Shown one piece after another: positions 1 to 64,000 of a stretch of 64,000 bases of DNA. The notes below the pieces were generated by a model, which saw nothing but the letters and a program-made list of their open reading frames with translations, made no database searches and was not told where the DNA came from. Made by a program: the position numbers and the translations under genes. Within the stretch, counting starts at the first letter, position 1; the number at the start of each line of letters is the position of its first letter. The stretch is from an uncultured Heliomicrobium sp. (GTDB lineage: Bacteria; Acidobacteriota; Blastocatellia; RBC074): assembly GCA_964570175.1 (NCBI GenBank), contig CAZMXG010000007.1, positions 2,109-66,108 on the forward strand, written 5' to 3'.

Positions 1-50
1 CGCTTTTACTTTCGACATCAACCCCTTCGCCTGGCGGCCCCGCAGCCGGA

Positions 51-1448
51 ATGCCGCCGCAGCCGGAGGAAGTCCCTGAATTTACCAAGACTAATTGCAA
101 ATCCTGTGGCGCAGAAGCCAAACCATATTCACGATTTTGCGAAGCTTGCGGCAGCAATCTTGTTGGCACCAAGTCAAACACAGTGGAAACCGTGGCTTCC
201 ACTGTGTCGCAGCCAAGTCAGGCAGAATCATTGCCCGTAAACCGCAAAAAACCTGAGCACACCTACCAGCCTTCCCCGACAATCTTTGAGCCTCGCTCGC
301 TTTCCGAATCTGATAAAAAGCCTGCTGCACATGAGCCTAAAATGTCTGACGCCTTGAATCATCGCACAGACAGTCTTTCCTCATCAGAATTGCCAGACTC
401 TGGAAATTTGGTTCTGGAATCTGGCACGCCTGCGGCAACAATATCTGACTCTTCTGGAAAACTTGGAACCGCCACTCACTTACCGACTGTATCGGAAGAG
501 AATGGCTCGCAGCCAAAAACTGTGGTTACGCCTTTGCCTCCATTTGGTGGTGAATTTCGCACCAAACAATCAGGCGTTCTCGCCGAATCCCAAACGCATG
601 GCAAACGCGCCCTGTTACAAACTTCTGTATTTTTTGTGCTGGCTTTATTGCTCATTTTGTTTGTGTATTGGTGGTTTAATCGAGATTTCAAAGTTGGAAT
701 TGATGGTAATTCCTCATCGCAACCTTCTACGGCGCAGCCCGGAGCGTCATCCACTTCGAACACGAACAAGCTCACGGTTGCTACAAGCAAAAATGGGCTG
801 GAAAACATGGCATTCATTCCTGGCGGCAAGCTGGATATGGGACGCAATAATGGTGATGAGTATGAGACTCCGGTTCACGCTGTAACAGTCAATCCCTTTT
901 ATATGGATCGCACGGAAGTGACGAATGAAGAGTATCAATTGTTTGTCACAGCAACCGGACATAGGCCGCCTCCTCATTGGCGAGGCGGCAAGTTCCCCTT
1001 GAATGAAGCGAAACTTCCTGTCGTGAATGTTTCCTGGGATGATGCCAATGCTTATGCTCAATGGATTGGGAAACGATTGCCAACAGAAGAGGAATGGGAA
1101 TTTGCCGCTCGTGGATCAGACGGCAGAATTTATCCTTGGGGAAATTCCTGGAACACAGCCAATGCAAATGCGGGCAAGGAACCGGGTGGGAGCATTAGTA
1201 AGGTTGGAAGTTTCCCCAATGGAGCCAGTCAATTTGGAATCATGGATTTGTGCGGCAACGTTTGGGAATGGACCTCAAGCAGCTTGGTCAATTACGCGGA
1301 CCAAAAAGAAATTGCTCCCGGAAAAGTTATTCGAGGCGGCGCTTACGATACTCCAAGCAAGCGGGCGACAGCTACTTACAGAGGTGTATTACCATCGGAT
1401 CGGTTACGCGATAAAACAGGATTTCGTCTGGTAAAGGACGCGAAATAA
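51..1448 (+). CDS. N-terminal zinc-ribbon / single TM / C-terminal FGE-sulfatase (SUMF1-like) domain protein
   Basis: N-terminus CKSCGAEAKPYSRFCEACGSNL (CxxC...CxxC zinc ribbon). Hydrophobic helix VFFVLALLLILFVYWWF. C-terminal 250 aa has FGE/SUMF1-type motifs (MAFIPGGKLDMG..., VNVSWDDANAYAQWIGKRLPTEEEWEFAARG, RGGAY). Confidence 0.6.
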   Translation: MPPQPEEVPEFTKTNCKSCGAEAKPYSRFCEACGSNLVGTKSNTVETVASTVSQPSQAESLPVNRKKPEHTYQPSPTIFEPRSLSESDKKPAAHEPKMSDALNHRTDSLSSSELPDSGNLVLESGTPAATISDSSGKLGTATHLPTVSEENGSQPKTVVTPLPPFGGEFRTKQSGVLAESQTHGKRALLQTSVFFVLALLLILFVYWWFNRDFKVGIDGNSSSQPSTAQPGASSTSNTNKLTVATSKNGLENMAFIPGGKLDMGRNNGDEYETPVHAVTVNPFYMDRTEVTNEEYQLFVTATGHRPPPHWRGGKFPLNEAKLPVVNVSWDDANAYAQWIGKRLPTEEEWEFAARGSDGRIYPWGNSWNTANANAGKEPGGSISKVGSFPNGASQFGIMDLCGNVWEWTSSSLVNYADQKEIAPGKVIRGGAYDTPSKRATATYRGVLPSDRLRDKTGFRLVKDAK

Positions 1449-1521
1449 AAGCGATTCAACTTTCAAAACCTCACTGATTTCCGATTGATGCCCTCAGTCG
1501 GACTTTTGAAAGCGAATTATC

Positions 1522-2868
1522 ATGAACGGAGTGGGAATCTTCTATCACAAGCATCTTTCTCATTTGCTGTGTAGCATTGGACTGTTGTTGATTGCTGCCC
1601 TGGCATTTTGGCAACCGCTTTCCGCTCAGGATTCGACTGGCCGCGAGCTTCCCAAACCTACGAAGAAATCTTCCACACCTACTCCTAAGCCAACCAAAAA
1701 AGGCAACAAGCCAGCCGAGTCTAAAGTCGCAATTACTAAACCGACACCGGTTCCTGTTAGACGTCTCACCATTCTTGCGCCTCCGGGAGCTTTGATTGAA
1801 ATTGATGGCTCAACAAAAGGGTTTGCCGGGATTGATGGCAATCTTGTCGTGTTAGGAGTTGCTACTGGAAATCACCAATTAAGCGCGAGACTTACCGGTT
1901 ACGAAGATTGGAATGGACCTCTTCCTGTCGGAGCTGCTGTCACCAAATTTGAAGTTCCCATGAAGAAAAAGCCTGATCCAGGCAAGATCGCGATCATAAT
2001 CAACGAATCCGATGCATTGGTAACAGTTGATGGACTTGAAAAACTGAATCCGAAGGTTGGCCAACAGAGCTTGCTATCCGGTTTATCAACAGGAACGCAC
2101 AAGATCGTCGCCAAGAAAAAGAACTTCTATGATTGGAACGGAGAGGTTGCGGTTGAACCTGGCAAGACCAACACGGTAAAAATCGTCCTGAAACCTTTGA
2201 TTGATCCAGACATGCTGGTTATCGGAGAAGGCGTTTTTGAAATGGGCAGCGACACAGGCGATGGTGATCATCGCCCCAAGCATCAGGTTTTCGTTTCAGC
2301 GTTTGAAATTTCCAGAACTGAAATAACCAATCGGTTATACAAAAAGTTTGTTGACGAAGCGGGCCATCAGCCTCCGCAAGGATTAGGCTATGGCTGGCGC
2401 GCTAATCAATACCCTCTTGGTCATGACGACTTTCCAGTTGTTTTTGTAAGTTGGAATGACGCCGCCGCGTTTTGCAAGTGGTTGTCACAAGAAAGCGGCA
2501 GCACATATCGGTTGCCAACAGAAGCGGAGTGGGAGAAGGCGGCAAAAATACGATCAACGCCTGAAACAGCAGATCAATCCAACGAAAAATTCTTGTCGGC
2601 AGGCAGAGTTTGGGAATGGTGCTCTGATTGGTATGATCCCGGATATTACAAGCTGCGTGATCGCATCAATCCACAAGGCCCCGTCGTAGGTAAAAAAATC
2701 AAGATGATGGGCTTCGAAGGACAAACAAAATCTTTGCGTGGAGGCGGCTTTGGGAAAGGGCAAGTTTTATTGCGGGCAGCCGAACGAAATCAGTATTTTC
2801 CGGACAAAAGCCGGTTTGATATAGGCTTCCGCGTCGTGCGCGAAATCAAACAAGGAGCAAGCAAGTGA
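1522..2868 (+). CDS. Secreted PEGA-repeat + FGE-sulfatase (SUMF1-like) domain protein
   Basis: Signal peptide and Pro/Lys/Thr-rich linker. Two PEGA-like beta repeats (PPGALIEIDG..., IAIIINESDALVTVDG...). C-terminal FGE domain (GEGVFEMGSD, VVFVSWNDAAAFCKWLSQESGSTYRLPTEAEWEKAA). Stop overlaps the next gene by 4 bp. Confidence 0.6.
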   Translation: MNGVGIFYHKHLSHLLCSIGLLLIAALAFWQPLSAQDSTGRELPKPTKKSSTPTPKPTKKGNKPAESKVAITKPTPVPVRRLTILAPPGALIEIDGSTKGFAGIDGNLVVLGVATGNHQLSARLTGYEDWNGPLPVGAAVTKFEVPMKKKPDPGKIAIIINESDALVTVDGLEKLNPKVGQQSLLSGLSTGTHKIVAKKKNFYDWNGEVAVEPGKTNTVKIVLKPLIDPDMLVIGEGVFEMGSDTGDGDHRPKHQVFVSAFEISRTEITNRLYKKFVDEAGHQPPQGLGYGWRANQYPLGHDDFPVVFVSWNDAAAFCKWLSQESGSTYRLPTEAEWEKAAKIRSTPETADQSNEKFLSAGRVWEWCSDWYDPGYYKLRDRINPQGPVVGKKIKMMGFEGQTKSLRGGGFGKGQVLLRAAERNQYFPDKSRFDIGFRVVREIKQGASK

Positions 2869-3743
2869 AGAGAAAATTTTCCAGACCAATTTCCAGTCAG
2901 CTTTTGCTTTTTGCGACATTGGCAATCCTGTTTATCTCTTCATCTGCCGTGGCCCAGCAACGGCCCTTAATCACCGAAGATGTTGAGATCGTAAAGCCTG
3001 GCTCGGTCCGGTTCGAGTTCGGCTTTGATTTTTCGCAGGATAAAAACTTTACCTTGTCCGGATTGAATGGCGATCTGACCCGCTTTGGGGTCGTTTCCGC
3101 CACGTTTGGACTTGCTCCCAACGTCGAGTTTGAAACCGGCGGTGTGATCCAGAACTTTCTCAGCATTAACCGCCCGTACCGCCCGTCTGCCGTGCCATTG
3201 CAATTGAGCCAGGCGACAAATTCAACGCATGACTCTGGCGATTTTTACCTGGCCACAAAAATTAAGCTGCGACCTGAAACCAAACGACTGCCCGGTGTTG
3301 GTTTTCGCTTTGGTGCTGAGTTGCCAAACTCGAATCAATCGCGCGGAATTGGGGTGAATCAAATCAATTTTTTTGCGACAACACTGGTTGGCAAAAATTT
3401 TGGCAAACGAGTTCGCGTTGTTGGCAATCTGGGCTTGGGAATTTTGACCGCGCCGATTGATCGGTTTACGCAAAACGACGTCTTACTTTACGGCTTGGGA
3501 ATGAGTTATCTGTACAACGATCGGGTCACTTTGGTCGGGGAAGTCAACGGACGCTACAATACTCGTGGCCAAGCCCCGCTCGGCACTGAATCTGAAGGAT
3601 CTGCCAGATTGGGCGCTCGAATTCGCGCTGCCGGGTTGATCTGGGACATCGCCGGAATCAAAGGCATTCACAATAACAGTGCCCAAAGCGGAATCAGTTT
3701 TGGTGTCAGTTACGAAGCCAGTTTGTTTCAACCCGTAAAGTAG
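2865..3743 (+). CDS. Putative outer-membrane beta-barrel protein (signal peptide, alternating amphipathic strands, C-terminal aromatic)
   Basis: Signal peptide ...SSSAVAQQ. Gly/aromatic-rich alternating pattern. Ends ...GVSYEASLFQPVK. Translationally coupled to the upstream FGE protein. Confidence 0.4.
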   Translation: MKRKFSRPISSQLLLFATLAILFISSSAVAQQRPLITEDVEIVKPGSVRFEFGFDFSQDKNFTLSGLNGDLTRFGVVSATFGLAPNVEFETGGVIQNFLSINRPYRPSAVPLQLSQATNSTHDSGDFYLATKIKLRPETKRLPGVGFRFGAELPNSNQSRGIGVNQINFFATTLVGKNFGKRVRVVGNLGLGILTAPIDRFTQNDVLLYGLGMSYLYNDRVTLVGEVNGRYNTRGQAPLGTESEGSARLGARIRAAGLIWDIAGIKGIHNNSAQSGISFGVSYEASLFQPVK

Positions 3744-3952: not shown

Positions 3953-5212
3953 TTGGGAGCAAAGGCCATGACGCCTCTTCAACTTCTCACACGTTTTCTT
4001 GCGCCATTTTTTTCTTTGATCGCTTTGTGCGGCTTTCTGAGCTTTGGCTCAATTCAGGTTTCGGCTCAAACGACACGCATGCTAAGAGTCCAACAGTCCA
4101 TTGCTGCGCGCGGACAAAATCAGAGCGTTGTTGTCGAAATGGAAGCCGTCGGAAATGAAAATGCAGTGGGCTTCAGTTTGAATTTCGATGCCAGTCAGTT
4201 GCGGTATGTTTCGGCTTCGACTTTTGGCGGTTCGACCGGAGCGGCGATAAATATCAACACTTCAATGGTTGGTGTTGGCAAAGTGGGAATTGCGTTGGCA
4301 TTACCGGGTGGCCAGAAACTCGTCCTGGGCAAACAAGCCATCGCCATCATCACCTTTACCGTGTTGGCAACTGAAAATGTCTCAAACACATTTTTGAGTT
4401 TCGGGGATCAGCCGATTGCGCGCGAAGTCGTCGACACTTCCGCAAATGCAGTGGCAGCCAACTTTTCCGGAGCCACACTGACTTTCGCGCAACCAATGGC
4501 CGCCGTTTCAGCCGCCAGCTTCAGCAATGCCAAATTGTCCGGCGATTCGATTGCCACGGCTTTTGGCAATCGCTTGGCGACAAAAACGCAAGCCGCGACT
4601 TCTTTGCCGTTGCCGACTTCACTGGCTGGCTCCAGTTTGATCGTCAAAGACAGCCTGGGCACCGAACGCAATGCCCCACTCTTTTTCGTTTCTCCTACGC
4701 AAGTTAACTTTCTGATTCCAGTAGGCACAGCGACTGGCCCGGCAGCAATCATTGCCACAAATGGCGATGGCATTCTTTCAGTCACCAACACGGAAATCAC
4801 AACTGTCGCGCCATCGCTTTTTTCCGCCAGCGCCACTGGCCAAGGACTTGCCGTCGCCGTTGTGCAGCGAAGAAAGGCGAACGGCGCAATCAGTTACGAA
4901 GCAACTTCCCGTTTTGACTCAACCTTGGGCAAGCTGGTCGCAGTTCCAATTGATCTAAGCCAGCCGACAGATCAGGTCTTTTTGCTGCTTTATGGCACGG
5001 GAATCAAAAACCGCAGCAGTCTATCCAACGTGCTGGTCAAACTGGGCGGCACGAATGCGGAAGTACTTTTTGCCGGTGCCACAACAGAGTTTGCAGGTTT
5101 GGACCAGGTCAACATCCGCCTGCCGCAGACCTTAGCCGGTCGCGGCATGGTCAACATTGTGTTAACCGTTGACGGCCAATCGGCGAACTCGGTGGAGATC
5201 AGCATCAAGTAA
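3953..5212 (+). CDS. Secreted cohesin-like domain protein with Acidobacteria-type C-terminal domain (resembles TIGR03437 Soli_cterm)
   Basis: Signal peptide. N-terminal beta domain (VVVEMEAVGNENAVGFSLNFDASQLRYVSAS) is cohesin-like. C-terminal 220 aa (ATAFGNRLATKTQAATSLPLPTSLAGSSLIVKD...PLFFVSPTQVNFLIP...) is paralogous to the C-terminus of the 29465..30706 protein. Confidence 0.45.
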   Translation: MGAKAMTPLQLLTRFLAPFFSLIALCGFLSFGSIQVSAQTTRMLRVQQSIAARGQNQSVVVEMEAVGNENAVGFSLNFDASQLRYVSASTFGGSTGAAININTSMVGVGKVGIALALPGGQKLVLGKQAIAIITFTVLATENVSNTFLSFGDQPIAREVVDTSANAVAANFSGATLTFAQPMAAVSAASFSNAKLSGDSIATAFGNRLATKTQAATSLPLPTSLAGSSLIVKDSLGTERNAPLFFVSPTQVNFLIPVGTATGPAAIIATNGDGILSVTNTEITTVAPSLFSASATGQGLAVAVVQRRKANGAISYEATSRFDSTLGKLVAVPIDLSQPTDQVFLLLYGTGIKNRSSLSNVLVKLGGTNAEVLFAGATTEFAGLDQVNIRLPQTLAGRGMVNIVLTVDGQSANSVEISIK

Positions 5213-27036: not shown

Positions 27037-29118
27037 CTAGTTGCTGGGTTTGATCGGGCGTGGTGGTGGCGCTTCGCGCGAAGGTGGCGAAGATGGTTTG
27101 TCCGGCGCACGTTCGCTTCTGGATGGAGCCGATTCACGCGACGGCGGCGGCGACGAAGGCCGTTCCGGCGCGCGTTCGCTTCTGGACGGAGCCGATTCTC
27201 GCGAAGGCGGCGGCGATGAAGGCCGTTCAACCGGACGCGATGGTGGCGGATCGTACCGTCGCGGAGCTTCACTGCGCGAAGGCGGTTCGCTTTGCCGAGG
27301 CGTTTCGATGCGTGACGGACGATCCGCATCGCGGTTCACTTCGCGGTTTGGTGTCGAACGCGGCGTATCAACAGAATCGCGTGACGGATTGCTGCGCTCG
27401 CTTTCCGGCAAACTGCGCGTAGGAGCCGGAATACGGTCAACAGTTCTGTATTCGCTTTCACGCGGTTGACGGTCAGGGCGAACGATCTGCCCATCCTGAA
27501 TCCGGCTTGGCGATGCAGAATTACCGTCTGCGTTGCGAATCGGAGCGCTTCGATCCGGCGACACAGTCCCCCGACCATCACGAGATGGAAGCCCGCCGAC
27601 TTCTGCTCTGCCCGGAACACCCGTGCGATCCAATCCCGGCACCGGGCGGCGTTCAATCACAGGAGCTTCCAGCCGACGAGCAATTTCAGTTCGTTCGACT
27701 TTCAGTTCGCGCGTCGGCGCAGCCTGCACAGGTTTGAACTCTTCGCCGCGCAACATAGTCGGCGTAGAGGGATCTGCTGGCTGACCACCTCCGCGAGGCG
27801 GAGCAGGCGGCAAAATAATTTCATTTGGCGCTTTGATGTCATTTTGCGTGACGATCACTCGCCCGTTATCGAACTTGCGGCCATCCATGACGCTGACTCC
27901 GCCTGGAGCATTGTAATTATCCAGCGAACGCGCATTGATGATGGTCGTGTTGTTGACGATTGTGGTGGAACCTCGGCCGCCGTAATACCTGTCGCGCGGG
28001 CCCAATGGACACCAGCCGTACCAACCATATCGCCCGTCGCGATACCCGTCACGATAGCCCTGGTTGTAACCGCTGCCCCAGCCAAAAAACGCGACTTGAT
28101 GCGGTGCCCAGCCCCAGCCCACTGAAACGGTCGGCACCCAGCACCAACGGCTGCGATACCAGGCCCAGCGCCCGTAATGATAGGGAACCCATCCCCAAGG
28201 TTCGTACGAAACCCAGGTCCAGCCCCAGCCGGAATAGTGCCGCCAGTAACCGGCTCGGTAAGGTGCCCAGCCAACGGCTACGCTACGAGGCGACCAGACC
28301 CAACCGTAATCAGGGGATTCATACCATTCACCGTAAGCGTCCAGATCATAAACGCCAGGAACGGCCACAGGAATGTAACGCGCACTGCGGGAATTTTCGG
28401 CCCGCGAAGACAGATCATCATCGCGGCGGTCATTCCAACGATCCCAATCGTCTTTGTCATCCAGCCGTGCAATCTGGAAGTAATTGGCATCTCGCCCATC
28501 AACAACAATACGGCGGCCTTGTTTAACCGTCACTGCGCCAATATCACGGTTGTAAACTTCAGCCTGTCCGCGCCGGACGATCACTTCGGTGGTTCCGTCA
28601 TCCTGCACATTGATGCGGTAGCTGCCTTCTTTCAAAAACGTGACGGCGACAATCGGCGTATCGACTTCAAAATAGACCGGATCGTTTTTTCCCAGATCGT
28701 TCGCGTCAACAACACTGAATTGACGCCGATCCAAGCTGTCTACGCGAAACGTCGCATTTCCGACTGGCAAGGCAAATTGAATTGTTCCGTTGTTGAATTG
28801 TGAAAACCGCAGATTGGAATTGCGGTCAATGCGGATCAGATTGCGTCCGCTAATTTGAATTTCAGCTCGACCGCCTGGGCCGCTATAAATCTGGTCACGT
28901 TCATTTAGTGGCAGATTCAAAGAAGCGTCATACCAGTTTTGGCCATCGCCGGTGCGCTGATAACTGACTTCACCTTCAATCAAGCTGATGCGGGCAACAC
29001 GTACAGCCTGGTCTTGCGCGACAACCAGCGTGAACAGGGAGGTCAGGAAACCGATCAAAAGTGCCGCACGCATCAGGCGGCGGCTTGCAAGCAATTCTGA
29101 AGCAGTGGGAAAGAGCAT
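27037..29118 (-). CDS. Secreted FecR-domain-like protein with Trp/Tyr/Gly-rich central region and Pro/Ser-rich repetitive C-terminal tail
   Basis: Signal or anchor helix. N-terminal [13 protein letters not shown]...[19 protein letters not shown] is FecR-like. Central segment dense in W/Y/G ([50 protein letters not shown]). About 250-aa low-complexity P/S/R/E tail ending in two 21-aa repeats. Confidence 0.5.
27100..27230. repeat. Coding tandem repeat, 63-bp unit x2, encoding [18 protein letters not shown](E/D)(R/K)P
   Basis: Near-identical 63-nt units begin at about 27102 and 27165 on the + strand, inside the 3' end of the 27037..29118 gene. Confidence 0.7.
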
Positions 29119-43896: not shown

Positions 43897-46070
43897 CTAT
43901 AAATATTCCCGATCTTCATAACACCAGCCCCATTCTTCACCGGGTACCAAAGATTTGATCAGCGGATGAGCCATCCGCTGATGGTGTGCAGTGGCGTGTT
44001 TATTTTTTGATGAATCGCAACAGCCGACGTGACCGCAGGTCAGGCACAATCGCAAATGCACCCAGGTGTCGCCTGAAATCAGGCATTCTTCACAGCCCCG
44101 CGCGCCGGGCACTACCGGGCGGATTTGGTCAAGGTGGGAACAAACGCTTTCTGAAACGGTTGGGGTGAACCTAACAGTCGTTTCGGTATCCACCGTAAAG
44201 CTGACGTTCTGTGGTTGCGGCAGGGAATTCCCTTCGTCGGACTTTTCTTTTCTCACCGGCATGGAGCATTGCGCCATCTTGTCCAAATGAACCTGGCAAA
44301 CGACGGGCGGTGTTTCGCCTTCTGCCGGTTGATGCAGCAAAGCGGCATATCCGCCGCTGCGAATCACTTTTTCGTTGGCTTCGATTTGTTCTGTCGGGAT
44401 TTCGTAATGCTCCATGACTTCCGTGAAAATGCGGGTGATGCTTTCCATCTCTTCGGCAATCGCACTATCCACACCGGCTTCAATCAGCGGACGCGCATCG
44501 CTGATGTAGCGCGTTCGAACGACGATCCGCATTTCCGGATTTAGCGTTTTAGCGACAGCCACAACACGATGCGTCATCGCCGGGTCGTCATCGGCAATCA
44601 CCATCATCCGTGCTCGCTCAACTCCGGCGTGTTCCAGAATGTTCCGTTTGCTATAATCGCCGCGCAACACGTTCAAGCCCGCCGCTTCGGCTTCGTTCGC
44701 GCCCCCTGGACTAAGCGTCGTGATAATGTAAGGAATGCCCGACCCGCTCAAGACGTGAACCAATCTGCGCGCCGCTTGCCCGTACCCTGCCACAATCACG
44801 TGATCATCTAAGTCCAGGAGTGGTTCTGGCAGCACGGTAGCTTCCATTCCGGCGATGATTCTGGCTGTGGTTTTCTTTTGAATCTTTCCCGCCAGCCGCG
44901 AACCGATCTGCATCAGAAACGGCGTCACAACCATCAGCACCACCGTTCCCGCGATAAACGCCTGCGAACCGGCAGCGTCCATCCCCGCAGGCGTCAACCC
45001 CACTTCACGCCCGGCACGTTCCAGCACAAAGGAAAATTCGCCAATTTGCGCCAGCATCAGCGCTGAAGCCGCCGTCACCGGCAATTTGTAGCCAAGCGCT
45101 CGCACGCTCAAACCTGTTGTTATGATCTTGATCAACAACGTCGCCGCAATGACTGCCAACGCCAATGGCAGATTCATTACCAGAAAGCGCAAATCCAACA
45201 GAATGCCGACCGAAACGAAAAAGATCGCGCTGAACAAAATCTGCAACGGCATGATTTCGCCCAAGGCGTGATGGCTGAACCGGCTTTCGCTGACCAGCAA
45301 CCCGGCAAGAAATGCGCCCAGCGATAGGCTGACTCCGGCCAAACTGGTCAAGTAAGCCGTGCCGAAACAAATGGCGATGACCGTCAACAGAAACAATTCC
45401 GGTGAACAGGTTTCGGCGACTTTTTCCAAAATCTTCGGCATCAGTTTGCGCGCAAAAAACAGCACCAGAAAAATGATGGCCAGCGCTTTGCCTAATGCCC
45501 AGACGATTCCAAGCGCCGAACCTCCTGTACCGCTGAGCATCGGAACCAGCAAGACCATGACGATGATCGCCAGGTCTTGGAAAATCAGCAGCCCCAGTCC
45601 AACCTGTCCCTGTTCGCTATTTGTTTCGCCCCGGTCGCCCAGCACTTTCAGGACGATGGCCGTGGAACTGAGTGCCACCAGAAAGCCTGTGAACAGCCCT
45701 GCGCGCCAATTGACCCCAAACAGTGTCAACAGCCCCATTGTCGCCAGCGAAGCCAGCACCACCTGAAGCCCGCCGCCGACAAAGATCAGACGCTTGATGC
45801 TGGCCAGTTTTTCCAGGCTGAATTCAATACCGATGGTGAACAGCAGCAAAATGACGCCGATTTCGGCGGCGTTATCTACCAGTTCACGATTACTGACCAA
45901 CCCCAACGCGTGGGGCCCGATCAACACACCAGCCAATAGAAAGCCGACAATCGGCACCAGCCGCAACCGAAAACTGATGTACGCGATGACTGCACCCGCA
46001 ACCATCAGGGCAACGGCATCTGTCAGGTAAGCCGGAACCGTTCCGGCTGCAAAGATTGTCGGCAAGCTCA
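43897..46070 (-). CDS. CPA2-family cation:proton antiporter (Kef-type) fused to TrkA-N/TrkA-C and a C-terminal UBP-type zinc finger
   Basis: 12-TM Na+/H+-exchanger domain. Rossmann TrkA-N (HVIVAGYGQAARRLVHVL). C-terminal zf-UBP-like CxxC...CxxCGHVGCC...H...H segment (GCEECLISGDTWVHLRLCLTCGHVGCCDSSKNKHATAHHQRMAHP). Start set at the MSLPTI ATG at 46070. Confidence 0.7.
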
Positions 46071-46324
46071 TCGTCAAAAATTTTTCCTTTGTTGAATGCG
46101 TTTGTCGTGACCGCATTCGATCATGCCTTAGCTTTCCCACGCTCGGCAACGAAGAACTCTGCCACTTCTATTGAAACACCGGCACCAACTTACGCCACAG
46201 TCCGCGCATAATCTGTACGGCAACAGACTCACCCTTTCTTGGTTTCTGATCACTGCGGACTTAAACTGCCAACGCCTCTTTGGTTCGTCAAAACCTTTCT
46301 ATTAACCATTCAGAGGGTATTTCG

Positions 46325-53937: not shown

Positions 53938-55551
53938 ATGAACGTACTTCTTGCCCTTCTTTTTTTGCAGGCTCCACCGCCAGAAAGCGTGGACAGACTG
54001 CTGGATCCGATTCTGCGTCACGGTCGAGACAACATCAGCTATCTGGCTTCGATGGATGGTTTCGATTGGACGATCGTTATCATGTATTTCACCATCCTGG
54101 CGCTGCTGGCTATTTTGGGCGCTTACCGCATCCGAATGGTGTATCAGTTCTGGCGTTACCGAAACATCAAACCACACCCCAAACGCCAATTTGCCGAAAA
54201 CGAATTGCCGCACATTACGGTTCAGCTTCCGCTGTTCAACGAACTGTACGTCGTCGAACGCCTGGTGGAATCCGTCGTCAAACTGGATTACCCGCGCCAC
54301 TTGCTGGAAATCCAGGTGCTGGACGATTCGACGGATGAAACTGTCGGCATTGCGGCGGAAGTCGTCGAACGATTCAAACAACAAGGCTTCGACATTGTCC
54401 ACATTCATCGAACCGACCGAACCGGCTTCAAAGCAGGCGCACTAGACAAAGGCATGAAAGTCGCCAAAGGGAAATTGATGGCGATTTTTGACGCCGACTT
54501 TACGCCCAGGCCCGACACTTTGAGGAAGATGGTGGATTTTTTCAGCGACGAAAAAGTCGGCATGGTGCAAATGCGCTGGGGGCACATCAATGCGAATTAC
54601 TCTTTGCTGACACGCATTCAGGAAGTGTTGCTGGATGGCCATTTCGTTGTGGAACAAACTTCGCGCAATCGCACCGGCGCGTTTTTCAACTTTAACGGAA
54701 CCGCCGGAATGTGGCGACGTGAAGCCATTGATTACAGCGGCGGCTGGCAACACGACACGTTGACCGAAGACACCGACCTGAGTTTTCGCGCTCAATTGAT
54801 GGGCTGGAAGTTTGTGTATCTGCTGGATGAAGAAGTTCCGGCGGAATTGCCTGTCGAAATGAATGCGTTCAAGGCGCAGCAGCGTCGCTGGGCAAAGGGC
54901 TTGGTGCAGGTCGGCCTGAAGCTGATGCCGCGCATCTGGCATCATCCGGACCTGACCTGGCAGCAAAAGGTGGAACTTTTTTTCCGCTTGTTTGGTAACT
55001 GCGCCGCGATGTTGATGATCGTACTGAGCGTTTTGCACATTCCGGTTTTAATCGTTCGGTTCAATCAGGGAATGTTCCAGATGCTGCTGTTCGATACACC
55101 ACTGATGATTTTTGCCACGTTTTCGGTCGTCAGCTTTTACGGCACGGCCATCCGGTATCGGTATCCAAACGAAAAATGGCGGCTGTGGCTGATTCCCATG
55201 GCAATGGCAATGGGCATCGGGCTGGTTTTTTCGAATACACGCGCTGTGTTGGAAGCCTTGTTCGGTGTTGAATCCAGCTTTGTCCGCACGCCGAAATACA
55301 ACGTCGAATCGAGCAAGGACAACTGGCTGCAAGTGGCCAAGAAGTACAAACGCAAAGGCGGATTGCTGCCGTTCATTGAATTGGCTTTTGCGCTGTATTT
55401 TGTTGGCGCTGTTTATTACGCAATCCGTTCGAACATTTATGCGACAATTCCGTTTCTCATGATCTTCCTGTTGGGTTACGGGTACATGGCAATGATGTCG
55501 TTGTTTCAAGGACGGGTGCGAAAACTGCTTAACGCGTTTCGTCGCAGTTAA
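53938..55551 (+). CDS. Family 2 glycosyltransferase, processive CESA-like membrane synthase
   Basis: GT-A motifs (VLDDSTDET; FDADF; TEDTDLSFR). QRRWAKG is the QxxRW motif. N-terminal TMs and 4 C-terminal TMs. Confidence 0.75.
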   Translation: MNVLLALLFLQAPPPESVDRLLDPILRHGRDNISYLASMDGFDWTIVIMYFTILALLAILGAYRIRMVYQFWRYRNIKPHPKRQFAENELPHITVQLPLFNELYVVERLVESVVKLDYPRHLLEIQVLDDSTDETVGIAAEVVERFKQQGFDIVHIHRTDRTGFKAGALDKGMKVAKGKLMAIFDADFTPRPDTLRKMVDFFSDEKVGMVQMRWGHINANYSLLTRIQEVLLDGHFVVEQTSRNRTGAFFNFNGTAGMWRREAIDYSGGWQHDTLTEDTDLSFRAQLMGWKFVYLLDEEVPAELPVEMNAFKAQQRRWAKGLVQVGLKLMPRIWHHPDLTWQQKVELFFRLFGNCAAMLMIVLSVLHIPVLIVRFNQGMFQMLLFDTPLMIFATFSVVSFYGTAIRYRYPNEKWRLWLIPMAMAMGIGLVFSNTRAVLEALFGVESSFVRTPKYNVESSKDNWLQVAKKYKRKGGLLPFIELAFALYFVGAVYYAIRSNIYATIPFLMIFLLGYGYMAMMSLFQGRVRKLLNAFRRS

Positions 55552-55585
55552 CCCATCAAGCGGAATTCAGTTTGTGGAGTAAGTT

Positions 55586-56173
55586 ATGTTCTGTCCGAAA
55601 TGCGGGTCGAACCAGGGTGATGGCAAAAAGTTTTGCACAGTTTGCGGAACCAACTTGCTCATCGTTTCGCAGGCTTTGACAGGACAACTTGCTCCGCCGC
55701 AACCTGCATTTCACCATTTGCCACCCGCTGCCATCTTCAATAGGGAAATGGAGCGCCAGAAAGAAATGCGCTCCGGAATTACGATGGCGGTGCTAGGCGG
55801 CAGCTATCTTGTTTATCAAATCATCAATTTTATTTTTTCCGCGCCCTTTAATGGCTGGCGTTCCCCATTTGGCTTTGGCAGCTTCATTGCATTCATTGTT
55901 TGCGCAGTTGGCATTTCCAAAATTATTAGCGCGCGAGTGATTGCCGATGCGCCCTCAACGACATCCGGCTTATCCAGCGCGATGTATCCGGCGACGGAAC
56001 CCGGTCAATCACCGCTTCCATCTCCGAGCGTGTCGGCTCAGGCAGCCCTGCCCAAACCGGTTTTTTCTGCTGCCCCTCCGATGCATCCGTCTGCTCCACA
56101 TACCAATGAGCTTGATCCCGTTCAAACAACAGTAAGCGTGACGGAAGAAGAAACGAAACACTTGGGTCGCTAA
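55586..56173 (+). CDS. Zinc-ribbon membrane protein (paralog 1)
   Basis: [24 protein letters not shown] zinc ribbon. Two predicted TM helices. Pro/Ser-rich C-terminus. Confidence 0.5.
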
Positions 56174-56189
56174 ATCCAACACCAGTTCG

Positions 56190-56807
56190 GTGAAAAGGAG
56201 AACTATGTTTTGCCCAAATTGTGGAACGGAAACCCGCGAAGCGATCAAGTTTTGTAAAAAGTGCGGGACGAATTTAAAGCGGGTGCAAGGCGTGATGAGC
56301 AAAGGCGGGGCCGGGTCCAGCGCCAACCAGTCAGCCGACTGGAACCAGTGGTGGATCGAAGAGCATCAGGAAAAGCGAGAACAAAACAAGAAGAAACTGC
56401 CCGAAGAAAAACGGCTGGAAGAAATTAAAACCGGTGTCATTACCGCCAGTGTCGGCCTGGCAATATCTATTTTCCTGAATCTTTTTTTCGAAGCCATCGC
56501 CAATGCTTCAGGCGGCCCTGAAGCAATCATCCTGCAACGCATCTGGGCAGTCGGATTGATCCCGCTTTTCATTGGGCTGGCCTTTGTTTTCAATGGCCTG
56601 TTCATCAGCAAACGCATTGTTGAATTGAAAAAGCAGCATCAAGATAATATGCCGCAACCGATGTTTGCGCCGGTTCCCAATACTTCGCCGGTTGCGCAAT
56701 TGAACGAAGCGGATCAACCCCAGCTTGCTGATTACAGCATTACCGAACCGACAACGACCAGGCTGCGCGAGCCCGTGCCCGTTTCATCGCCACGCGACAC
56801 GAACTGA
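56190..56807 (+). CDS. Zinc-ribbon membrane protein (paralog 2)
   Basis: MFCPNCGTETREAIKFCKKCGTNL. Charged linker. Two TM helices. Confidence 0.5.
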   Translation: MKRRTMFCPNCGTETREAIKFCKKCGTNLKRVQGVMSKGGAGSSANQSADWNQWWIEEHQEKREQNKKKLPEEKRLEEIKTGVITASVGLAISIFLNLFFEAIANASGGPEAIILQRIWAVGLIPLFIGLAFVFNGLFISKRIVELKKQHQDNMPQPMFAPVPNTSPVAQLNEADQPQLADYSITEPTTTRLREPVPVSSPRDTN

Positions 56808-56854
56808 TAAAGTTGTAAAACTGAAATCATAGAATCCCCAGGAGGACACTGTTA

Positions 56855-57352
56855 ATGTTTTGCACCCGATGTGGTACTCAAAACCCCGATGATGCAGGTT
56901 TTTGCCGCAACTGTTCCAGTCCGCTGACGCGCCCTGTTAGCCACTCAGGGCAACAGACTGCTCCGCAATCGAACCAACCAACATCAGGCTCTTATGCCAA
57001 TCCATCTTCATCGCAATCCCCCTATCCGGGTTATCAGGGACCGCCTGTGTACCAAAGTTCATATGCCAATCAACCGATAACGCAACAAAGCGGTGCCAGC
57101 GGACGCGCAATCGCCTCCATGGTTTTAAGTATTCTTGGCTTGGTGATGTGCGGTTTCTTGACCAGTATTCCAGCGATGATTTTGGGCAAGATGGAACTGA
57201 ACGACATCAAATTGGGCAAAGCTCCCAAAGCGGGTGAAACACTGGCCAAAATTGGATTTTATGTTGGAATCGCCGGAACCGTAATTTCTTGTCTCGCTGG
57301 TATTGCGGGCGCTGCCTTGTGGATTATCGGCGCGGCCAATTCATTCAATTGA
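56855..57352 (+). CDS. Zinc-ribbon protein with C-terminal DUF4190-like two-TM domain (paralog 3)
   Basis: MFCTRCGTQNPDDAGFCRNCSSPL. Q/S/P/Y-rich linker. IASMVLSILGLVMCGFLTSIPAMILGKMELNDIKLGKAPKAGETLAKIGFYVGIAG is DUF4190-like. Confidence 0.55.
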   Translation: MFCTRCGTQNPDDAGFCRNCSSPLTRPVSHSGQQTAPQSNQPTSGSYANPSSSQSPYPGYQGPPVYQSSYANQPITQQSGASGRAIASMVLSILGLVMCGFLTSIPAMILGKMELNDIKLGKAPKAGETLAKIGFYVGIAGTVISCLAGIAGAALWIIGAANSFN

Positions 57353-57462
57353 AAACAAACCAGGAAAAGTTAAATCACGTAGTTGTCGCAACCGGCGAGT
57401 CACCTTCTGATCGTGACTCGCCGGTTGCGTTTTCGCGCAATGACCAAATCACGTATCTGGCG

Positions 57463-57855
57463 ATGACTGCGGTGGCTGGTTTCACATTGATCCTCGCCAG
57501 AATGCTTACTCCAGCGAGTGCTGGTTACGGAACTCATGAACAATTGGGTTTGCCACCTTGCCTGTTTTTCAAACTGACTGGCCTGCCTTGCCCAAACTGT
57601 GGATTGACAACCAGCTTTGCTCATTCGGCCAGATTTCATTTTTACCAGGCCTTCATCGCACAGCCCTTCGGCCTAATTGCTTTTTGCCTGACAGTTGCAA
57701 GCATTCCATCCTTCGTTTTTCTGATCCGGCGACGAATTTCATGGGCTGAATTCATCCGCGCCAAAGGCTTCGATCACCTGATTTACACTCTGATCGCAGT
57801 GTACTTGTTGGGCTGGATTTATAAGATTGCCGTGATCAAATTGACCGGAAACTGA
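57463..57855 (+). CDS. DUF2752-like membrane protein
   Basis: [13 protein letters not shown] (CPxCG motif) within a 4-TM protein. Start uncertain. The ORF-track start at 57289 overlaps the upstream gene. Confidence 0.5.
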
Positions 57856-59809: not shown

Positions 59810-60409
59810 CTATCTGACTGGTTCACCGAGAACGTAGCCATTAACCATCACGGTAGGCTCTTTGCCAAGCTGAATAATGCATGTGTTGGAGAAACCTTCC
59901 TTGTTTTCATTCTTTGGCGTCCAAGTAATTTCCAGAGCCTCTACCGCCTTGCCAACTGCAACCGTAGTCGTCGTTTGCCCGATGCGAATCTTGTCCGAAC
60001 CCGTGCCGAGCTTATCCCCCGCCTTCTGATCAATCATTACTGCATTGCCTGCCACCTTGGATTCCGTCTCTCCAGAAGGCAGCCGATTCAACGTCACCGG
60101 CTTTATCGTAACCGTGTACTGCTTCATCTCCGCGGCAATCAGCACCTCAACCTGCGCTGTCGAATCATCTAGCCGCTGCGCGACGATGGCTACGGCATAA
60201 TGCGGCGTCAATGCTCCCAGCGCGTAATTCCGCAACGTCTCATCGCGCCATTTGGTGTAGGCAACTAATGGCGTTGTAGATATTGGCGTTATCTGTGTGC
60301 CGTTGCTCTGCTCCGCCAGAGCACCTGGGGTTGCGGCTGGTTCTTGCACTTGCGCTGATGCAGCGATAGTCGCCAATACAAACAAACTACTCAATATTAT
60401 GTTAACCAT
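59810..60409 (-). CDS. Secreted hypothetical protein
   Basis: Start set at MVNIILSSLFVLATIAASAQ (signal peptide). Beta-rich. AT-richer than the window average. Confidence 0.3.
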   Translation of the reverse strand: MVNIILSSLFVLATIAASAQVQEPAATPGALAEQSNGTQITPISTTPLVAYTKWRDETLRNYALGALTPHYAVAIVAQRLDDSTAQVEVLIAAEMKQYTVTIKPVTLNRLPSGETESKVAGNAVMIDQKAGDKLGTGSDKIRIGQTTTTVAVGKAVEALEITWTPKNENKEGFSNTCIIQLGKEPTVMVNGYVLGEPVR

Positions 60410-60476
60410 TGTTGTGTTACCTCGTGATAATATGGCTATCCTTGCTATAGGGAATTGGCTTGATTTATAGCAGTTT

Positions 60477-60806
60477 TTAGCAGTCGACAGGTTTGAGTTG
60501 AGTAAAAAAACCGTCTTTCCATAAGTAATCAACAGATGCTTTTATGTTTTCCATTGTTACTTTAGGGATAACTATAAGACCTGGCTCCGCAAAACAAGGG
60601 ATACCGCGCTTACTGTCATAGCTTAAGTCTTGCTCTAGCCTTGTAGGATCAATAAAGAAGATAGAGTATTGATTTCCATCCTCCAATCTCACTTTAATAG
60701 GCCCAACCCATCCTTTCACAACCATTTCGTCTTGTGCTCTTTTATCGAATCCTTTAGGAAACTCAAATTCTGGGTATTGCGTTATTTTTTGTAATGGCAT
60801 ATTCAC
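60477..60806 (-). CDS. Putative immunity protein for the upstream RHS toxin tip
   Basis: 109-aa ORF starting 9 bp after the RHS stop on the same strand. AT-rich like the toxin tip. No recognised domain. Confidence 0.4.
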   Translation of the reverse strand: MNMPLQKITQYPEFEFPKGFDKRAQDEMVVKGWVGPIKVRLEDGNQYSIFFIDPTRLEQDLSYDSKRGIPCFAEPGLIVIPKVTMENIKASVDYLWKDGFFTQLKPVDC

Positions 60807-60815
60807 CTTGCTTTA

Positions 60816-63800
60816 TCAAAATGGAATCAGCTTAATCAAGCTCAATAGGTCTATAAATCTTTCTAAAGTCATAGGAGATTGAGGGCCAATTTCATAATGG
60901 CCCGGAGAACCTTTCGGAAAAATCTCTAACTCAGGAGAAACTGTATTGAGGTCAATTTTATATGGCCCCCCATATTTAATAATATTTGGGTCATTTGGAT
61001 TCTGATTAACTGACATTCCTTTTCCTGGTTGAACCATCCCATTTTTAACTTTTATATCAATGCCAGGACGAGGACTATTTAGCTCCGGCCCACCTCGATA
61101 TAACGGAGGGCCATTATATTTACATTGATTATGCACCAGCACACTCAGTGTTGATACATAGTAAGTATGTGCTTCTGCCACCTCGAAGTTGTAGACTTTG
61201 AACTCACCACTTCGTCGCTTTATCGAGTCAACTTTGGCGACTGTTGTGTTCTTTGTCAGTAATTGTGAGCCCTGCTCCAATTGCCCAGCAGCGACCCATC
61301 CTTTTCCTATCACCCAAAATGGATGTTCTGGCGTTGCAGTAATGGTTTCTTTGCCAATGCGAATGTCTACAACTTCTGTAGCTGTTCGCTCAAAGACCTG
61401 CACCACCTTTTGTACACGGACAACAGATCCATTTTCTCCTTGTTCAGGATCAGAGGACAAGACTTTATCTCCGACTTTGATGTCTTCGATGCTTTTCTCG
61501 CCATCTGGTGTCTGCACTTTTGTGCCGGCGACAAAACAGTAATTGGCAGGATATCTACTACCAAACCTGCCGCCCAGAAATCCTCCTAACAATCCTCCTA
61601 GCAACCCAGCTCGTTCTATCTCGCACATTTGGTTCCAGCGTCTCAATGCTCTTGCCAACTGCACCACACCAACTACTGCTAGCGTTACGCCGATAACTGG
61701 AATTGCGACGGGAAACAGAGGCGCAAGTTCAATCATCATTAACGACATTCCGCCTGCAACATAAGCGCTTTCCGCCGCGCTTCTCCCAAATTCTCCCCAT
61801 TCCTCTCTTCCCCAACCCTGCAATCCTATGGGGTCAAACAGGTTCGTTGGGCTGTTGTAAACATAGGAGTACAGATTGGTATCTCGGCCAGCCAATCCAA
61901 TCGGGTCTTCGCTTAGGAATCGCCCTTGCTGAGGATCGTACCAGCGCGCACGATAATGCATCAGCCCAGTAGCAACATCTCGCTCTCGCCCTGTGAAGCC
62001 ATAACGTGTTCTTACACTTCCAGCGCTTGCGCCAAAAGCATCATATTGCTGTAGGGATTCAACCAGGCCCCCAGCAGCATTCGTCAATCCGAGCGTGCTT
62101 CCCAGGTGATCTTGCAAGAAGTACATCGTTCCCCAGGTTGAATCACTCTGCCTTAACTTGTCGTCAATGCTGGCCCCGTTCAGGTAATCAACTGCGCTCC
62201 CGTTAGAGCGGTCAATTACTGTTTCCAATCCATCGTACTGATAAGTCGTTGTCGTTCCATTGACCGAACTGCTAATGCGTCTTCCGGTTGCGTCATATCC
62301 ATAATCGGCGGTTTGTCCGTTGGGTAATGTTGCGCGAGTCAGTCTGCCACGAGCATCCCATTGATAGCCGGTTGTGCCTGAAGCATCTATTTTGGATGTC
62401 GTTTGCCCTTCCTGATTGAAGCTGTAATTAGCTGCTCCGAATTGCCCAATTCGATTGGCGGCATCTGCCGAGGTTGCTGTCTTGCTCTGAGGAGTTGCCA
62501 GCGCAGAAGCCAATGACGTGACTTTGTTGATTTCATTGTCCAAGTTGAATTCATACTGCAAGTCTTCCAACGTTGTGCTAGCGTTTGTATGAGTCAATCG
62601 CTTCAATCGGCTGACTTCATCATATAGGAATGCAGTGGTGACGTTATTCGGTCTTTGCAAGCTGGTTCGTCGGGAAAGCGTGTCGTAACCGTAGGTGAAG
62701 GTTTCACTTCCTTGCGAGATCGTCTGTAATCTTCCAAATGTGTCATAGCCATACGCCACGGGCAGTCGGTCTGCTGCCGTCATGGAATTCCGCTGATTGG
62801 CGTTGTTATAGCTGTAACTGACGACTCCAAGTGGGGTTGTTTCTGATGTTAGCCGGTTCGCGTTGTCGTATTGCCAGGTAATCGCACCATTCGCATCGCC
62901 GATGCTTGTGGGGCGGCCTGCCGTGTCATATTGATAAGTTACGGTGGCATCAGCATAAGTGACCGTGACAGGGCGATTGATATTGTCATAACTGACCGTT
63001 GTTCGCCGCCCCATGCGATCAGTCCTGGCAATGACGTTGCCCACAGGGTCATATTCCGCTGTCACCTTTCGCCCCAAGGGATCACTTCGGCTTGTCAGCC
63101 TGAATAACTCATCGTAGCCAAACGTCAAAGTGTTGTTGCGCTGATCTTTCAGCGAAATCACGTTTCCTCGATGGTCATAGATAAGGTTGATGATATTGCC
63201 CAACCCATCAGTGATCGTCTGCTGTTGGCCGCGAGCATCATAGCTATACCGCATTGTTCGCCCCGAAGCCGCAATCACTTTTACTAATTGATCTGCGGCA
63301 TCGTATTCCCACTTATAGGGTTTATCGTTGGATTCATTCAGTGGGCGTTTGCCAGTTACTAGATGATTCTTCGCATCATAAGTGAAAGTCCAGGTCTTCA
63401 GATTCGCATCGGTTACGCTCAGCCGGTTGTCGTTCTCATCATAGGTATAGCTGTAAGTTGGATTTCCTGTCTCATTAACCGGATCATTAACGGGCTTCCT
63501 TACATTCAAGACTCTATCCAGATTGTCATAACGCATTCTAGTCTGTCGTCCGAGCGGATCGGTTACCAACAAGAGATTACCAGCTAGGTCGTACTGAAAT
63601 GTTGTTGAATGATTGAGCGCATCGGTATGCGAAATGATGTAGCCATTCACATCGTATCCATACGATGTCGCATGGTTGAGCCCATCAGTAATGGCGGCCA
63701 GTCGCCCCAAGCTATCATAAGCATAAGCCGTCGTCTGGTTCAGCGCATTGGTGACGCTGACTAGGTTGCCTTTGGGCGTGATAGTGTTTGACGATACCGT

Positions 63801-64000
63801 GTCGTAACCGTAGCTGGTTACTTTGTTGCGCTTGTCGGTGTAACTGGTGACCTGACTGAGCACCGGATCGTAGCTGCTGGCCGGGCTGAAGGAGCGGTAC
63901 TGCCAGCTTTCGGTTTGACCCAACCGGTCTTTCACCGTCAGGACGTTGCCGCGATTGTCGTAAGTCTTTTCGGTTTCCGGACAACCGCAAGGCCCCGTAC
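60816..64000 (-). CDS. RHS / YD-repeat polymorphic toxin (partial; N-terminus beyond window end) with Hint domain and C-terminal toxin tip
   Basis: Dozens of YD repeats (YDxxGRL, TYQYDxxGN...). RHS core terminal motif DPIGLAGRDTNLYSYVYNSPTNLFDPIGL. Hydrophobic linker. Hint module CFVAGTKVQTPDG...VLVHNQ. About 105-aa tip. The listed start at 63935 is a GTG and the reading frame stays open to 63990 (KTYDNRGNVLTV...), so the gene continues upstream of the window. Confidence 0.85.
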   Translation of the reverse strand, partial: TGPCGCPETEKTYDNRGNVLTVKDRLGQTESWQYRSFSPASSYDPVLSQVTSYTDKRNKVTSYGYDTVSSNTITPKGNLVSVTNALNQTTAYAYDSLGRLAAITDGLNHATSYGYDVNGYIISHTDALNHSTTFQYDLAGNLLLVTDPLGRQTRMRYDNLDRVLNVRKPVNDPVNETGNPTYSYTYDENDNRLSVTDANLKTWTFTYDAKNHLVTGKRPLNESNDKPYKWEYDAADQLVKVIAASGRTMRYSYDARGQQQTITDGLGNIINLIYDHRGNVISLKDQRNNTLTFGYDELFRLTSRSDPLGRKVTAEYDPVGNVIARTDRMGRRTTVSYDNINRPVTVTYADATVTYQYDTAGRPTSIGDANGAITWQYDNANRLTSETTPLGVVSYSYNNANQRNSMTAADRLPVAYGYDTFGRLQTISQGSETFTYGYDTLSRRTSLQRPNNVTTAFLYDEVSRLKRLTHTNASTTLEDLQYEFNLDNEINKVTSLASALATPQSKTATSADAANRIGQFGAANYSFNQEGQTTSKIDASGTTGYQWDARGRLTRATLPNGQTADYGYDATGRRISSSVNGTTTTYQYDGLETVIDRSNGSAVDYLNGASIDDKLRQSDSTWGTMYFLQDHLGSTLGLTNAAGGLVESLQQYDAFGASAGSVRTRYGFTGRERDVATGLMHYRARWYDPQQGRFLSEDPIGLAGRDTNLYSYVYNSPTNLFDPIGLQGWGREEWGEFGRSAAESAYVAGGMSLMMIELAPLFPVAIPVIGVTLAVVGVVQLARALRRWNQMCEIERAGLLGGLLGGFLGGRFGSRYPANYCFVAGTKVQTPDGEKSIEDIKVGDKVLSSDPEQGENGSVVRVQKVVQVFERTATEVVDIRIGKETITATPEHPFWVIGKGWVAAGQLEQGSQLLTKNTTVAKVDSIKRRSGEFKVYNFEVAEAHTYYVSTLSVLVHNQCKYNGPPLYRGGPELNSPRPGIDIKVKNGMVQPGKGMSVNQNPNDPNIIKYGGPYKIDLNTVSPELEIFPKGSPGHYEIGPQSPMTLERFIDLLSLIKLIPF

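Follow-up and report, generated by a model that had tools for sequence, protein, structure and literature searches.

The formylglycine-generating enzyme (FGE; SUMF1), for which structures have been solved from Streptomyces coelicolor (2Q17/6MUJ) and human (1Y1E), has an active site of two Cu(I)-binding cysteines in the motif RGGS(Y/F)xC(H)xxxCxRYR. A match to the corresponding Pfam family, PF03781, is the sole ground on which thousands of bacterial proteins are automatically labelled as FGE or 'nonheme iron enzyme'. The fold also occurs without formylglycine generation, as in pFGE/SUMF2, the Cys-less paralog of human FGE (PDB 1Y4J), and in the type IX secretion and gliding lipoproteins PorK/GldK and GldJ, which are non-catalytic periplasmic FGE folds and structural parts of an outer-membrane-attached machine. 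The Cys-less FGE domains of the Tsi3 family of type VI secretion system (T6SS) immunity proteins act by binding other proteins and not as catalysts (bioRxiv 10.1101/2021.05.21.445229). Here we describe three consecutive genes, g1, g2 and g3, at the left end of a stretch of 64,000 nucleotides (the window) from contig CAZMXG010000007.1 of an uncultured soil member of the Blastocatellia (Acidobacteriota). The triad encodes two Cys-less FGE folds, one joined to zinc ribbons and a transmembrane (TM) segment and the other to PEGA-type modules, followed by a predicted outer-membrane beta-barrel, and the order of the three genes is conserved among related genomes.

The best solved-structure match of g1 is pFGE (E 1.3e-30), which like g1 and g2 has the FGE fold but lacks the catalytic Cys pair. 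Unlike them, pFGE is a eukaryotic single-domain protein of the endoplasmic reticulum lumen and has neither zinc ribbons, a TM helix, a PEGA domain nor a barrel operon. The likeness to PorK/GldK is partial, with 80 and 88 bits for the TIGR03525 model (cut-off 350) and E-values of ~1e-11 to 1e-12 for the PorK structures, and in contrast to these lipoproteins g1 is TM-anchored and g2 has no Cys at its predicted cleavage site. Neither the window nor the related loci contain PorL/M/N or other type IX secretion genes. Genes for Tsi3 lie in vgrG-tse3-tsi3 modules, whereas no T6SS effector adjoins the triad and the RHS toxin of the window is located 57 kb away. With the canonical FGE, g1 and g2 have the Pfam family and the fold in common, but they differ from it in the loss of both catalytic cysteines, in a 40-residue deletion in g2 and in having no sulfatase substrate nearby.

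Matches to PF03781 were obtained for both g1 and g2, in g2 at E 2.3e-37 and split in two stretches. The two domains, encoded on the same strand, share 30% identity (E 2e-28) and are therefore old paralogs, in agreement with the first-pass annotation, which had recognised two tandem FGE paralogs. In the alignment to the solved FGE structures the WEW and RGG core motifs of the family are retained, and YPWG and D..CGNVWEW are kept in the FGE domain of g1 in the ortholog alignment. The active-site stretch of S. coelicolor FGE, RGGSYLCHDSYCNR, was aligned to RGGAY---DTPSKR in g1, and g2 reads RGGGFGKGQ---VLLRAAERN where the S. coelicolor enzyme has RGGSYLCHDSYCNRYRVAARS. There is no Cys in the catalytic Cys columns of g1, of g2 or of 22 orthologs of each. 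Residues 342-358 of g2 span residues 176-233 of the S. coelicolor chain, so that ~40 mid-fold residues are missing, which argues against a preserved active site.

None of the 55 large open reading frames (ORFs) of the window, which show ordinary housekeeping genes, matched the sulfatase family PF00884, and neither the PROSITE signature nor a relaxed sulfatase signature (CxPxR) was found in the six frames of the window. The absence of the Cys pair together with the absence of a sulfatase from the window indicates that g1 and g2 are not formylglycine-generating enzymes. The first-pass annotation had likewise noted that no sulfatase gene lay nearby and doubted that these were classic FGEs; the finding that would have overturned its view, a catalytic Cys pair kept in both proteins along with a neighbouring CxPxR sulfatase, was not made. 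The public JGI and NCBI names given to the orthologs ('formylglycine-generating enzyme required for sulfatase activity' and, from NCBI, 'SUMF1/EgtB/PvdO family nonheme iron enzyme') are unsupported. These names and the strong PF03781 matches are what speaks for g1 and g2 being genuine FGEs whose sulfatase substrates would be encoded in other parts of the genome; since both copper-binding cysteines are gone in g1, g2 and all orthologs this is already contradicted, and with part of the fold missing in g2 and 64 kb of sequence devoid of a sulfatase or a CxPxR signature we consider it extremely improbable.

The same proteins were compared with other enzymes that use the fold. Curated NCBIfam models (EgtB, SenA, OvoA, PvdO, GldK, GldJ) match g1 and g2 partially, with 20-111 bits versus cut-offs of 350-560. 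For the EgtB model TIGR03440 (111 and 75 bits, cut-off 360) and the SenA model (108 and 80 bits, cut-off 420) the C-terminal FGE part alone is matched, and the PvdO model NF051459 yielded 51 and 68 bits versus a cut-off of 500. EgtB-type enzymes carry an N-terminal DinB_2 domain with an iron site, and Pfam detected no DinB domain in g1 or g2. There were no pvd genes in the Pfam scans of the window, and the g1 and g2 ortholog alignments show no cluster of conserved His or Cys residues. FGE-type lectin folds are also frequent as the variable proteins of diversity-generating retroelements. This origin was rejected here, as no repeat of at least 40 nt in the window involves bases 1-3743, no reverse transcriptase was present among the scanned ORFs and the match to TvpA is weak (E 5e-8). 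A role in anti-phage defence was likewise rejected, PADLOC giving no match for the triad or for the gene that follows it (g4).

A survey of ORFs at the left end of the window gave three frames on the same strand, at 51-1448, 1522-2868 and 2865-3743. The frame of g1 is already open at base 3 and does not start at 51: the residues LLLSTSTP encoded ahead of this ATG align to residues ~105-115 of the orthologs, which are 555-650 aa long when complete. All 20 of the complete orthologs start with MFCQKCSLHYPDHLSFCRRCGQ and contain four CxxC..CxxC ribbons. The g1 ortholog of the neighbouring, 90%-identical locus L084 has 579 aa with DZR matches, and the full-length ortholog of locus L002 reached 57.7 bits for DZR versus a cut-off of 27.3. 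The window thus has only the fourth ribbon (residues 16-37, counted like all g1 residues from the ATG at 51), for which the PF13240 match is under the Pfam cut-off, and g1 as seen here is the 3' portion of a gene that the window edge truncates. All three parts named in the first-pass annotation, a zinc ribbon, a TM segment and an FGE domain, were recovered, but that annotation had let the gene begin at 51 and missed its truncation.

One strongly hydrophobic stretch is present in g1 (maximum 2.67 in Kyte-Doolittle windows of 19 residues). The protein would accordingly span the inner membrane once, the zinc-ribbon module and a disordered linker ahead of the TM helix lying in the cytoplasm and the Cys-less FGE domain behind it in the periplasm. 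Among g1 orthologs, the FGE domain is 58-61% identical even where the remaining protein can barely be aligned.

In g2, a hydrophobic signal-like segment (residues 10-35) is followed by a predicted cleavage site, LSA|QD, with no lipobox cysteine at position +1. Next come a PEGA domain (residues 87-145; PF08308, E 1.9e-9), a second module resembling PEGA and CarboxypepD_reg (residues ~155-225; PF13620, E 1.1e-4, under its cut-off) and the FGE domain, an architecture that agrees with the signal peptide, PEGA repeats and FGE domain previously assigned to this gene. The precomputed domain set of the g2 orthologs is PF08308, PF13620 and PF03781. Directly past the signal segment, residues Q36, G40 and R41 are near-invariant, and the mature N-terminus is conserved as QD(S/P)TGRE.PK and continues into a K/P-rich linker of variable length, a pattern that suggests an extended tether. 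We infer that g2 is exported by the Sec pathway as a soluble periplasmic protein.

The start codon of g3 lies across the stop codon of g2 in the sequence GTGA (2865-2868), the overlap of 4 bp that had been noted at first pass, and is preceded eight bases upstream by GGAG. This overlap is repeated in L084, and in more distant orthologs g2 and g3 are separated by 24-200 nt. No Pfam family matched g3, and this includes PF13557, which is weakly matched by 8 of 20 close orthologs and by 7 of 46 distant relatives (best E 1.6e-5). The 5,893 database matches of g3 are mostly from Blastocatellia; a small number bear the name 'transporter', and a single one has a PF13557 tag. An exhaustive profile search collected 1,149 clusters at 50% identity (E <=1e-3). 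When the g3 alignment was used as a profile against PDB sequences, nothing significant was obtained (best E 0.79), and the fold was identified by structure comparison alone.

An AlphaFold2 (AF2) model of g3 built on 20 close orthologs had a mean predicted local distance difference test score (pLDDT) of 46.8 and was not used for the fold search. With an alignment of 135 sequences at 53-88% identity, to which orthologs from Pyrinomonadaceae had been added, the pLDDT rose to 83.2 with a predicted template modelling score (pTM) of 0.72, and the model has 12 main strands after the signal peptide. This model makes g3 an outer-membrane beta-barrel with 12 strands, belonging to the COG4313/FapF structural class, in line with the barrel proposed in the first-pass annotation. 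COG4313 channels are 12-stranded barrels in which the N-terminal ~14 residues occlude the lumen, and they are thought to import hydrophobic molecules (PMC4493636). The COG4313 channel Pput2725 (PDB 4RL8; PF13557, Phenol_MetA_deg) has the 12-stranded barrel and the signal peptide in common with g3 and differs in its PF13557 domain, which is not matched in the window protein. FapF, the polypeptide channel of Pseudomonas functional amyloid (PDB 5O65), is 11-15% identical to g3 in sequence; its N-terminal coiled-coil trimerisation domain and plug helix would find no room in the ~17 mature residues ahead of strand 1 of g3, and the fapA-E genes of the FapF operon are absent beside g3, where the neighbours are FGE proteins instead. 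The g3 family looks like a divergent sister family of the COG4313 channels that Pfam does not capture.

The segment ahead of strand 1, QQRPLITEDVEIVKPGS (17 residues, 31-47), is invariant or nearly so in the 135 sequences. It is probably located in or under the barrel lumen, and its AF2 position is unreliable (pLDDT <50 for residues 25-37). Many invariant residues were also observed in the predicted extracellular loops L2-L5, which is unusual for surface loops in a set that reaches down to 53% identity. The loop motifs are NSTHD.GDF, PNSNQ.RGIG.NQ, FTQNDVLLYG and APLGTES.

A scan of genomes seeded with the barrel yielded 80 loci, all from Blastocatellia or Acidobacteriota. The order zinc-ribbon-FGE, PEGA-FGE, barrel was complete in 23 of these and a further 3 were cut by contig ends; in the 23 complete triads the barrel is 66-88% identical to g3 of the window. 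No cultivable strain bearing the triad is represented in the 80 loci. The triad was also present in all five loci seeded with g2, at g2 identities of 46-90%. Flanking genes vary on both sides, with a divergent lexA (in many of the triad loci) or a purF-type GATase (amidotransferase) gene upstream and, downstream, Soli_cterm and major facilitator superfamily genes as in the window, UvrD, AAA ATPases or MscS. Since the triad stays intact while its flanks change, the three genes persist as a unit. Across the loci they are 0-200 nt apart, overlapping in the window, and in 13 loci a conserved promoter-like block, TTGCGN-17-TATGAT, stands ~65 nt ahead of the start of g1 and of no other gene of the triad. 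In the loci examined, no sigma factor, kinase or response regulator was consistently adjacent to the triad and no biosynthetic or catabolic genes travelled with it. A metagenome scan with the g2 alignment picked generic FGE motifs (YRLPTEAE, WEWC.DW) and hence unrelated FGE proteins of 24-36% identity, which were reused as a negative control: none of these 80 loci (484 kb) contained a g3-like barrel.

The surroundings of the triad and of the barrel were inspected in the same loci. In the lexA-g1 intergenic region of L002 (4578-4834) and of 12 other loci, a promoter-like site, TTGACA-17-TAAAGT, is located on the lexA strand and bears three GTTTCGG direct repeats with a period of 10-11 nt, possibly a LexA operator. 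Regulation of the triad by the SOS response was considered and gained no support, as six known LexA-box patterns (including GTTC-N7-GTTC) were unmatched in the lexA-g1 intergenic regions and the sole operator-like repeats, the three GTTTCGG copies, sit at the lexA promoter, away from the promoter-like block of g1. The gene downstream of the triad in the window, g4 (3953-5212), has a secreted product that matches TIGR03437, the Solibacter uncharacterised C-terminal domain, at E 6.3e-42; the gene adjoins the triad in the closest relatives only and is thus outside the conserved unit. In two loci from Pyrinomonadaceae, L055 and L058, the barrel is closely followed by a gene for a TM segment plus a Cys-less FGE domain and by a pair of CarboxypepD_reg-TPR genes, which may represent a second, separate co-occurrence of FGE and barrel. 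In both (L058 7127-13639), a divergent pair of extracytoplasmic function (ECF) sigma and anti-sigma factor genes precedes the barrel, and the FGE protein downstream has 314 aa.

We tentatively favour reading the triad as a clade-specific, envelope-spanning operon of Blastocatellia in which non-catalytic FGE binding modules would work with a channel of the COG4313/FapF class. The four zinc ribbons and the disordered linker of g1 would then be on the cytoplasmic side and its FGE domain, of C-type-lectin-like fold, on the periplasmic side. The FGE folds of g1 and g2 would have a binding or scaffolding part, for which pFGE, PorK/GldK and Tsi3 are precedents; they would link the inner membrane and the periplasm to the g3 barrel, and may hand over or hold its cargo, which could be a hydrophobic small molecule or an unfolded polypeptide. 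The first-pass annotation had spoken of ligand-binding or redox modules of an envelope system; the envelope part fits the predicted inner-membrane, secreted and outer-membrane topology as well as the conservation of the triad, and a ligand-binding and a redox function are equally conjectural.

Several observations weigh against the envelope-operon reading. About 50 other loci, mostly from Pyrinomonadaceae and including the cultured Pyrinomonas methylaliphatogenes K22, carry the barrel (54-72% identity) without the FGE genes. The Pyrinomonadaceae barrels of this kind keep the same invariant N-terminal segment and loops, so the core function of the barrel would be independent of g1 and g2. In this family the barrel is usually followed by two VTT/DedA genes on the same strand (L047 8001-10300, L061 7989-10308 and ~25 others), a context that hints at lipid-related transport. 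The barrel is moreover the most conserved of the three proteins (65-94% identity versus 46-90% for g2 and 39-83% for g1), and since all triad loci come from one lineage, the gene order could partly reflect descent. The predicted periplasmic turns of g3 are very short and leave little docking surface besides the N-terminal segment, and the high conservation of the g1 FGE domain would equally suit an enzyme. Physical association of the three proteins and any common cargo are postulated.

The barrel-only loci, in which the barrel is equally conserved, would be expected if the FGE pair and the barrel were mere neighbours with no shared mechanism, g1 being a TM sensor with periplasmic FGE input and zinc-ribbon output, g2 its periplasmic partner and g3 a housekeeping channel. 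The barrel-free set of 80 unrelated FGE loci points the same way, kinases and enhancer-binding proteins are known to use FGE domains as extracytoplasmic modules, and zinc ribbons followed by a TM segment and an extracytoplasmic domain are the typical layout of membrane-anchored regulators. We nevertheless think this rather unlikely, given that the triad remains intact although both flanks change, that its genes are spaced by 0-200 nt with GTGA coupling in the window, that a single conserved promoter-like element lies upstream of g1 and that the loci have no constant neighbour among sigma factors, kinases and response regulators.

Should g1, and possibly g2, instead be enzymes with a new, non-FGE activity, such as a PvdO-like periplasmic oxidoreductase or another metal-dependent modifier, their substrate or product could cross the outer membrane through g3. 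The fold does house diverse enzymes, with PvdO, EgtB, OvoA, SenA, ToxD and CalU17 among the PDB and NCBIfam matches, strong conservation is seen in the FGE domain of g1, where YPWG and D..CGNVWEW are retained, and COG4313 channels are tied to small hydrophobic substrates. Against this, all known enzyme family models score far under their cut-offs, the DinB partner domain is absent, the ortholog alignments have no conserved His or Cys cluster, ~40 fold residues have been lost from g2, and the triad has no accompanying biosynthetic or catabolic genes, so that we regard an enzymatic role as fairly improbable. A further reading, which we judge to be distinctly doubtful, takes g3 as a FapF-like narrow polypeptide channel with g2 as its client. 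The translationally coupled barrel would thread or export the conserved N-terminal peptide of g2 together with the K/P-rich linker, the PEGA/FGE modules or the N-terminal peptide would be displayed at the surface, and g1 would act as the inner-membrane and cytoplasmic partner; in that case Acidobacteria would have a hitherto undescribed system of two or three partners for surface display or secretion. The positions of the triad features are given in Table 1.

Table 1. Features of the g1-g2-g3 triad, in positions of the window
Feature	Position	Strand	Basis
g1 (3' part)	3..1448	+	Frame open from base 3; orthologs; Pfam
Zinc ribbon of g1, CKSCG...CEACG, fourth of four in orthologs	96..161	+	PF13240 E 3.6e-4; DZR in L002
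Predicted single TM helix of g1 (residues ~187-209)	609..677	+	Kyte-Doolittle
g1 FGE-sulfatase fold domain without catalytic Cys pair	801..1436	+	PF03781 E 9.5e-54; S. coelicolor FGE alignment; 22 orthologs
g2, predicted secreted periplasmic protein: signal peptide, QD(S/P)TGRE.PK N-terminus, K/P-rich linker, two PEGA-type beta-sandwiches, shortened Cys-less FGE fold	1522..2868	+	
Predicted g2 signal peptide, cleavage LSA|QD	1522..1626	+	Hydrophobic segment residues 10-35; conserved Q36, G40, R41
g2 PEGA (87-145) and second PEGA/CarboxypepD_reg-like module (~155-225)	1780..2196	+	PF08308, PF13620
g2 FGE fold domain, without both cysteines and ~40 mid-fold residues	2206..2844	+	PF03781; S. coelicolor FGE alignment; orthologs
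g2/g3 junction: GGAG 2854-2857, GTG 2865, TGA 2866-2868	2854..2868	+	Direct sequence reading
g3 predicted barrel: signal peptide 1-30, QQRPLITEDVEIVKPGS 31-47, strands 47-286	2865..3743	+	
g3 predicted loops L2-L5 (residues 105-126, 154-167, 196-202, 233-243)	3177-3242, 3324-3365, 3450-3470, 3561-3593	+	

Elsewhere in the window, at 53938-57855, the gene of a 537-aa GT2 glycosyltransferase is followed by those of three small proteins in tandem, which have an N-terminal Zn_Ribbon_1 and TM regions (DUF6249, DUF4190), and of a DUF2752 protein. The first-pass annotation had linked the zinc ribbon of g1 to this array at 55-57 kb. We see no support for this link: g1 and the array proteins resemble each other only across the 22 residues of the ribbon (39-45% identity; pairwise E-values from 1e-3 to 4e-5), and the array is >50 kb away. 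Zinc ribbons are a very common module. The reverse-strand gene at 59810-63935 codes for an RHS-repeat protein of 1,039 aa that includes a PT-HINT domain and at its tip weakly matches a Tse2-like ADP-ribosyltransferase (E 1.6e-3), and a 240-aa ORF with no Pfam match just downstream of it could be its immunity gene. Two tandem copies of 63 nt (27083-27208), 83% identical, lie within a FecR/DUF6600 gene of the reverse strand (27037-29118). Another reverse-strand gene (43897-46149) combines a Kef-type Na+/H+ exchanger and TrkA_N with a C-terminal zf-UBP zinc finger (E 1.6e-11); we know of no such fusion in bacteria.

Each part of the triad is of a known kind, namely a Cys-less FGE fold, PEGA, DZR and a COG4313/FapF-like barrel, and thousands of orthologs are already in the databases under misleading names. 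The triad itself is uncharacterised and moderately unusual, and our literature search found no paper that joins FGE-sulfatase with PEGA. What is new is the conserved combination of these parts at the operon level in one clade of Blastocatellia, and the recognition of g3 as a member of a divergent barrel family that Pfam misses. In Blastocatellia, which abound in soil, the envelope has received little experimental study, and for a pair of whole orthologous groups in this class the FGE or nonheme iron label is wrong. The present practical value lies mainly in better annotation and in a testable hypothesis. If the three proteins do form one unit, the FGE fold would gain a further role in the envelope beside that of PorK/GldK, and there would be a first genomic handle on a barrel family of 1,149 clusters.

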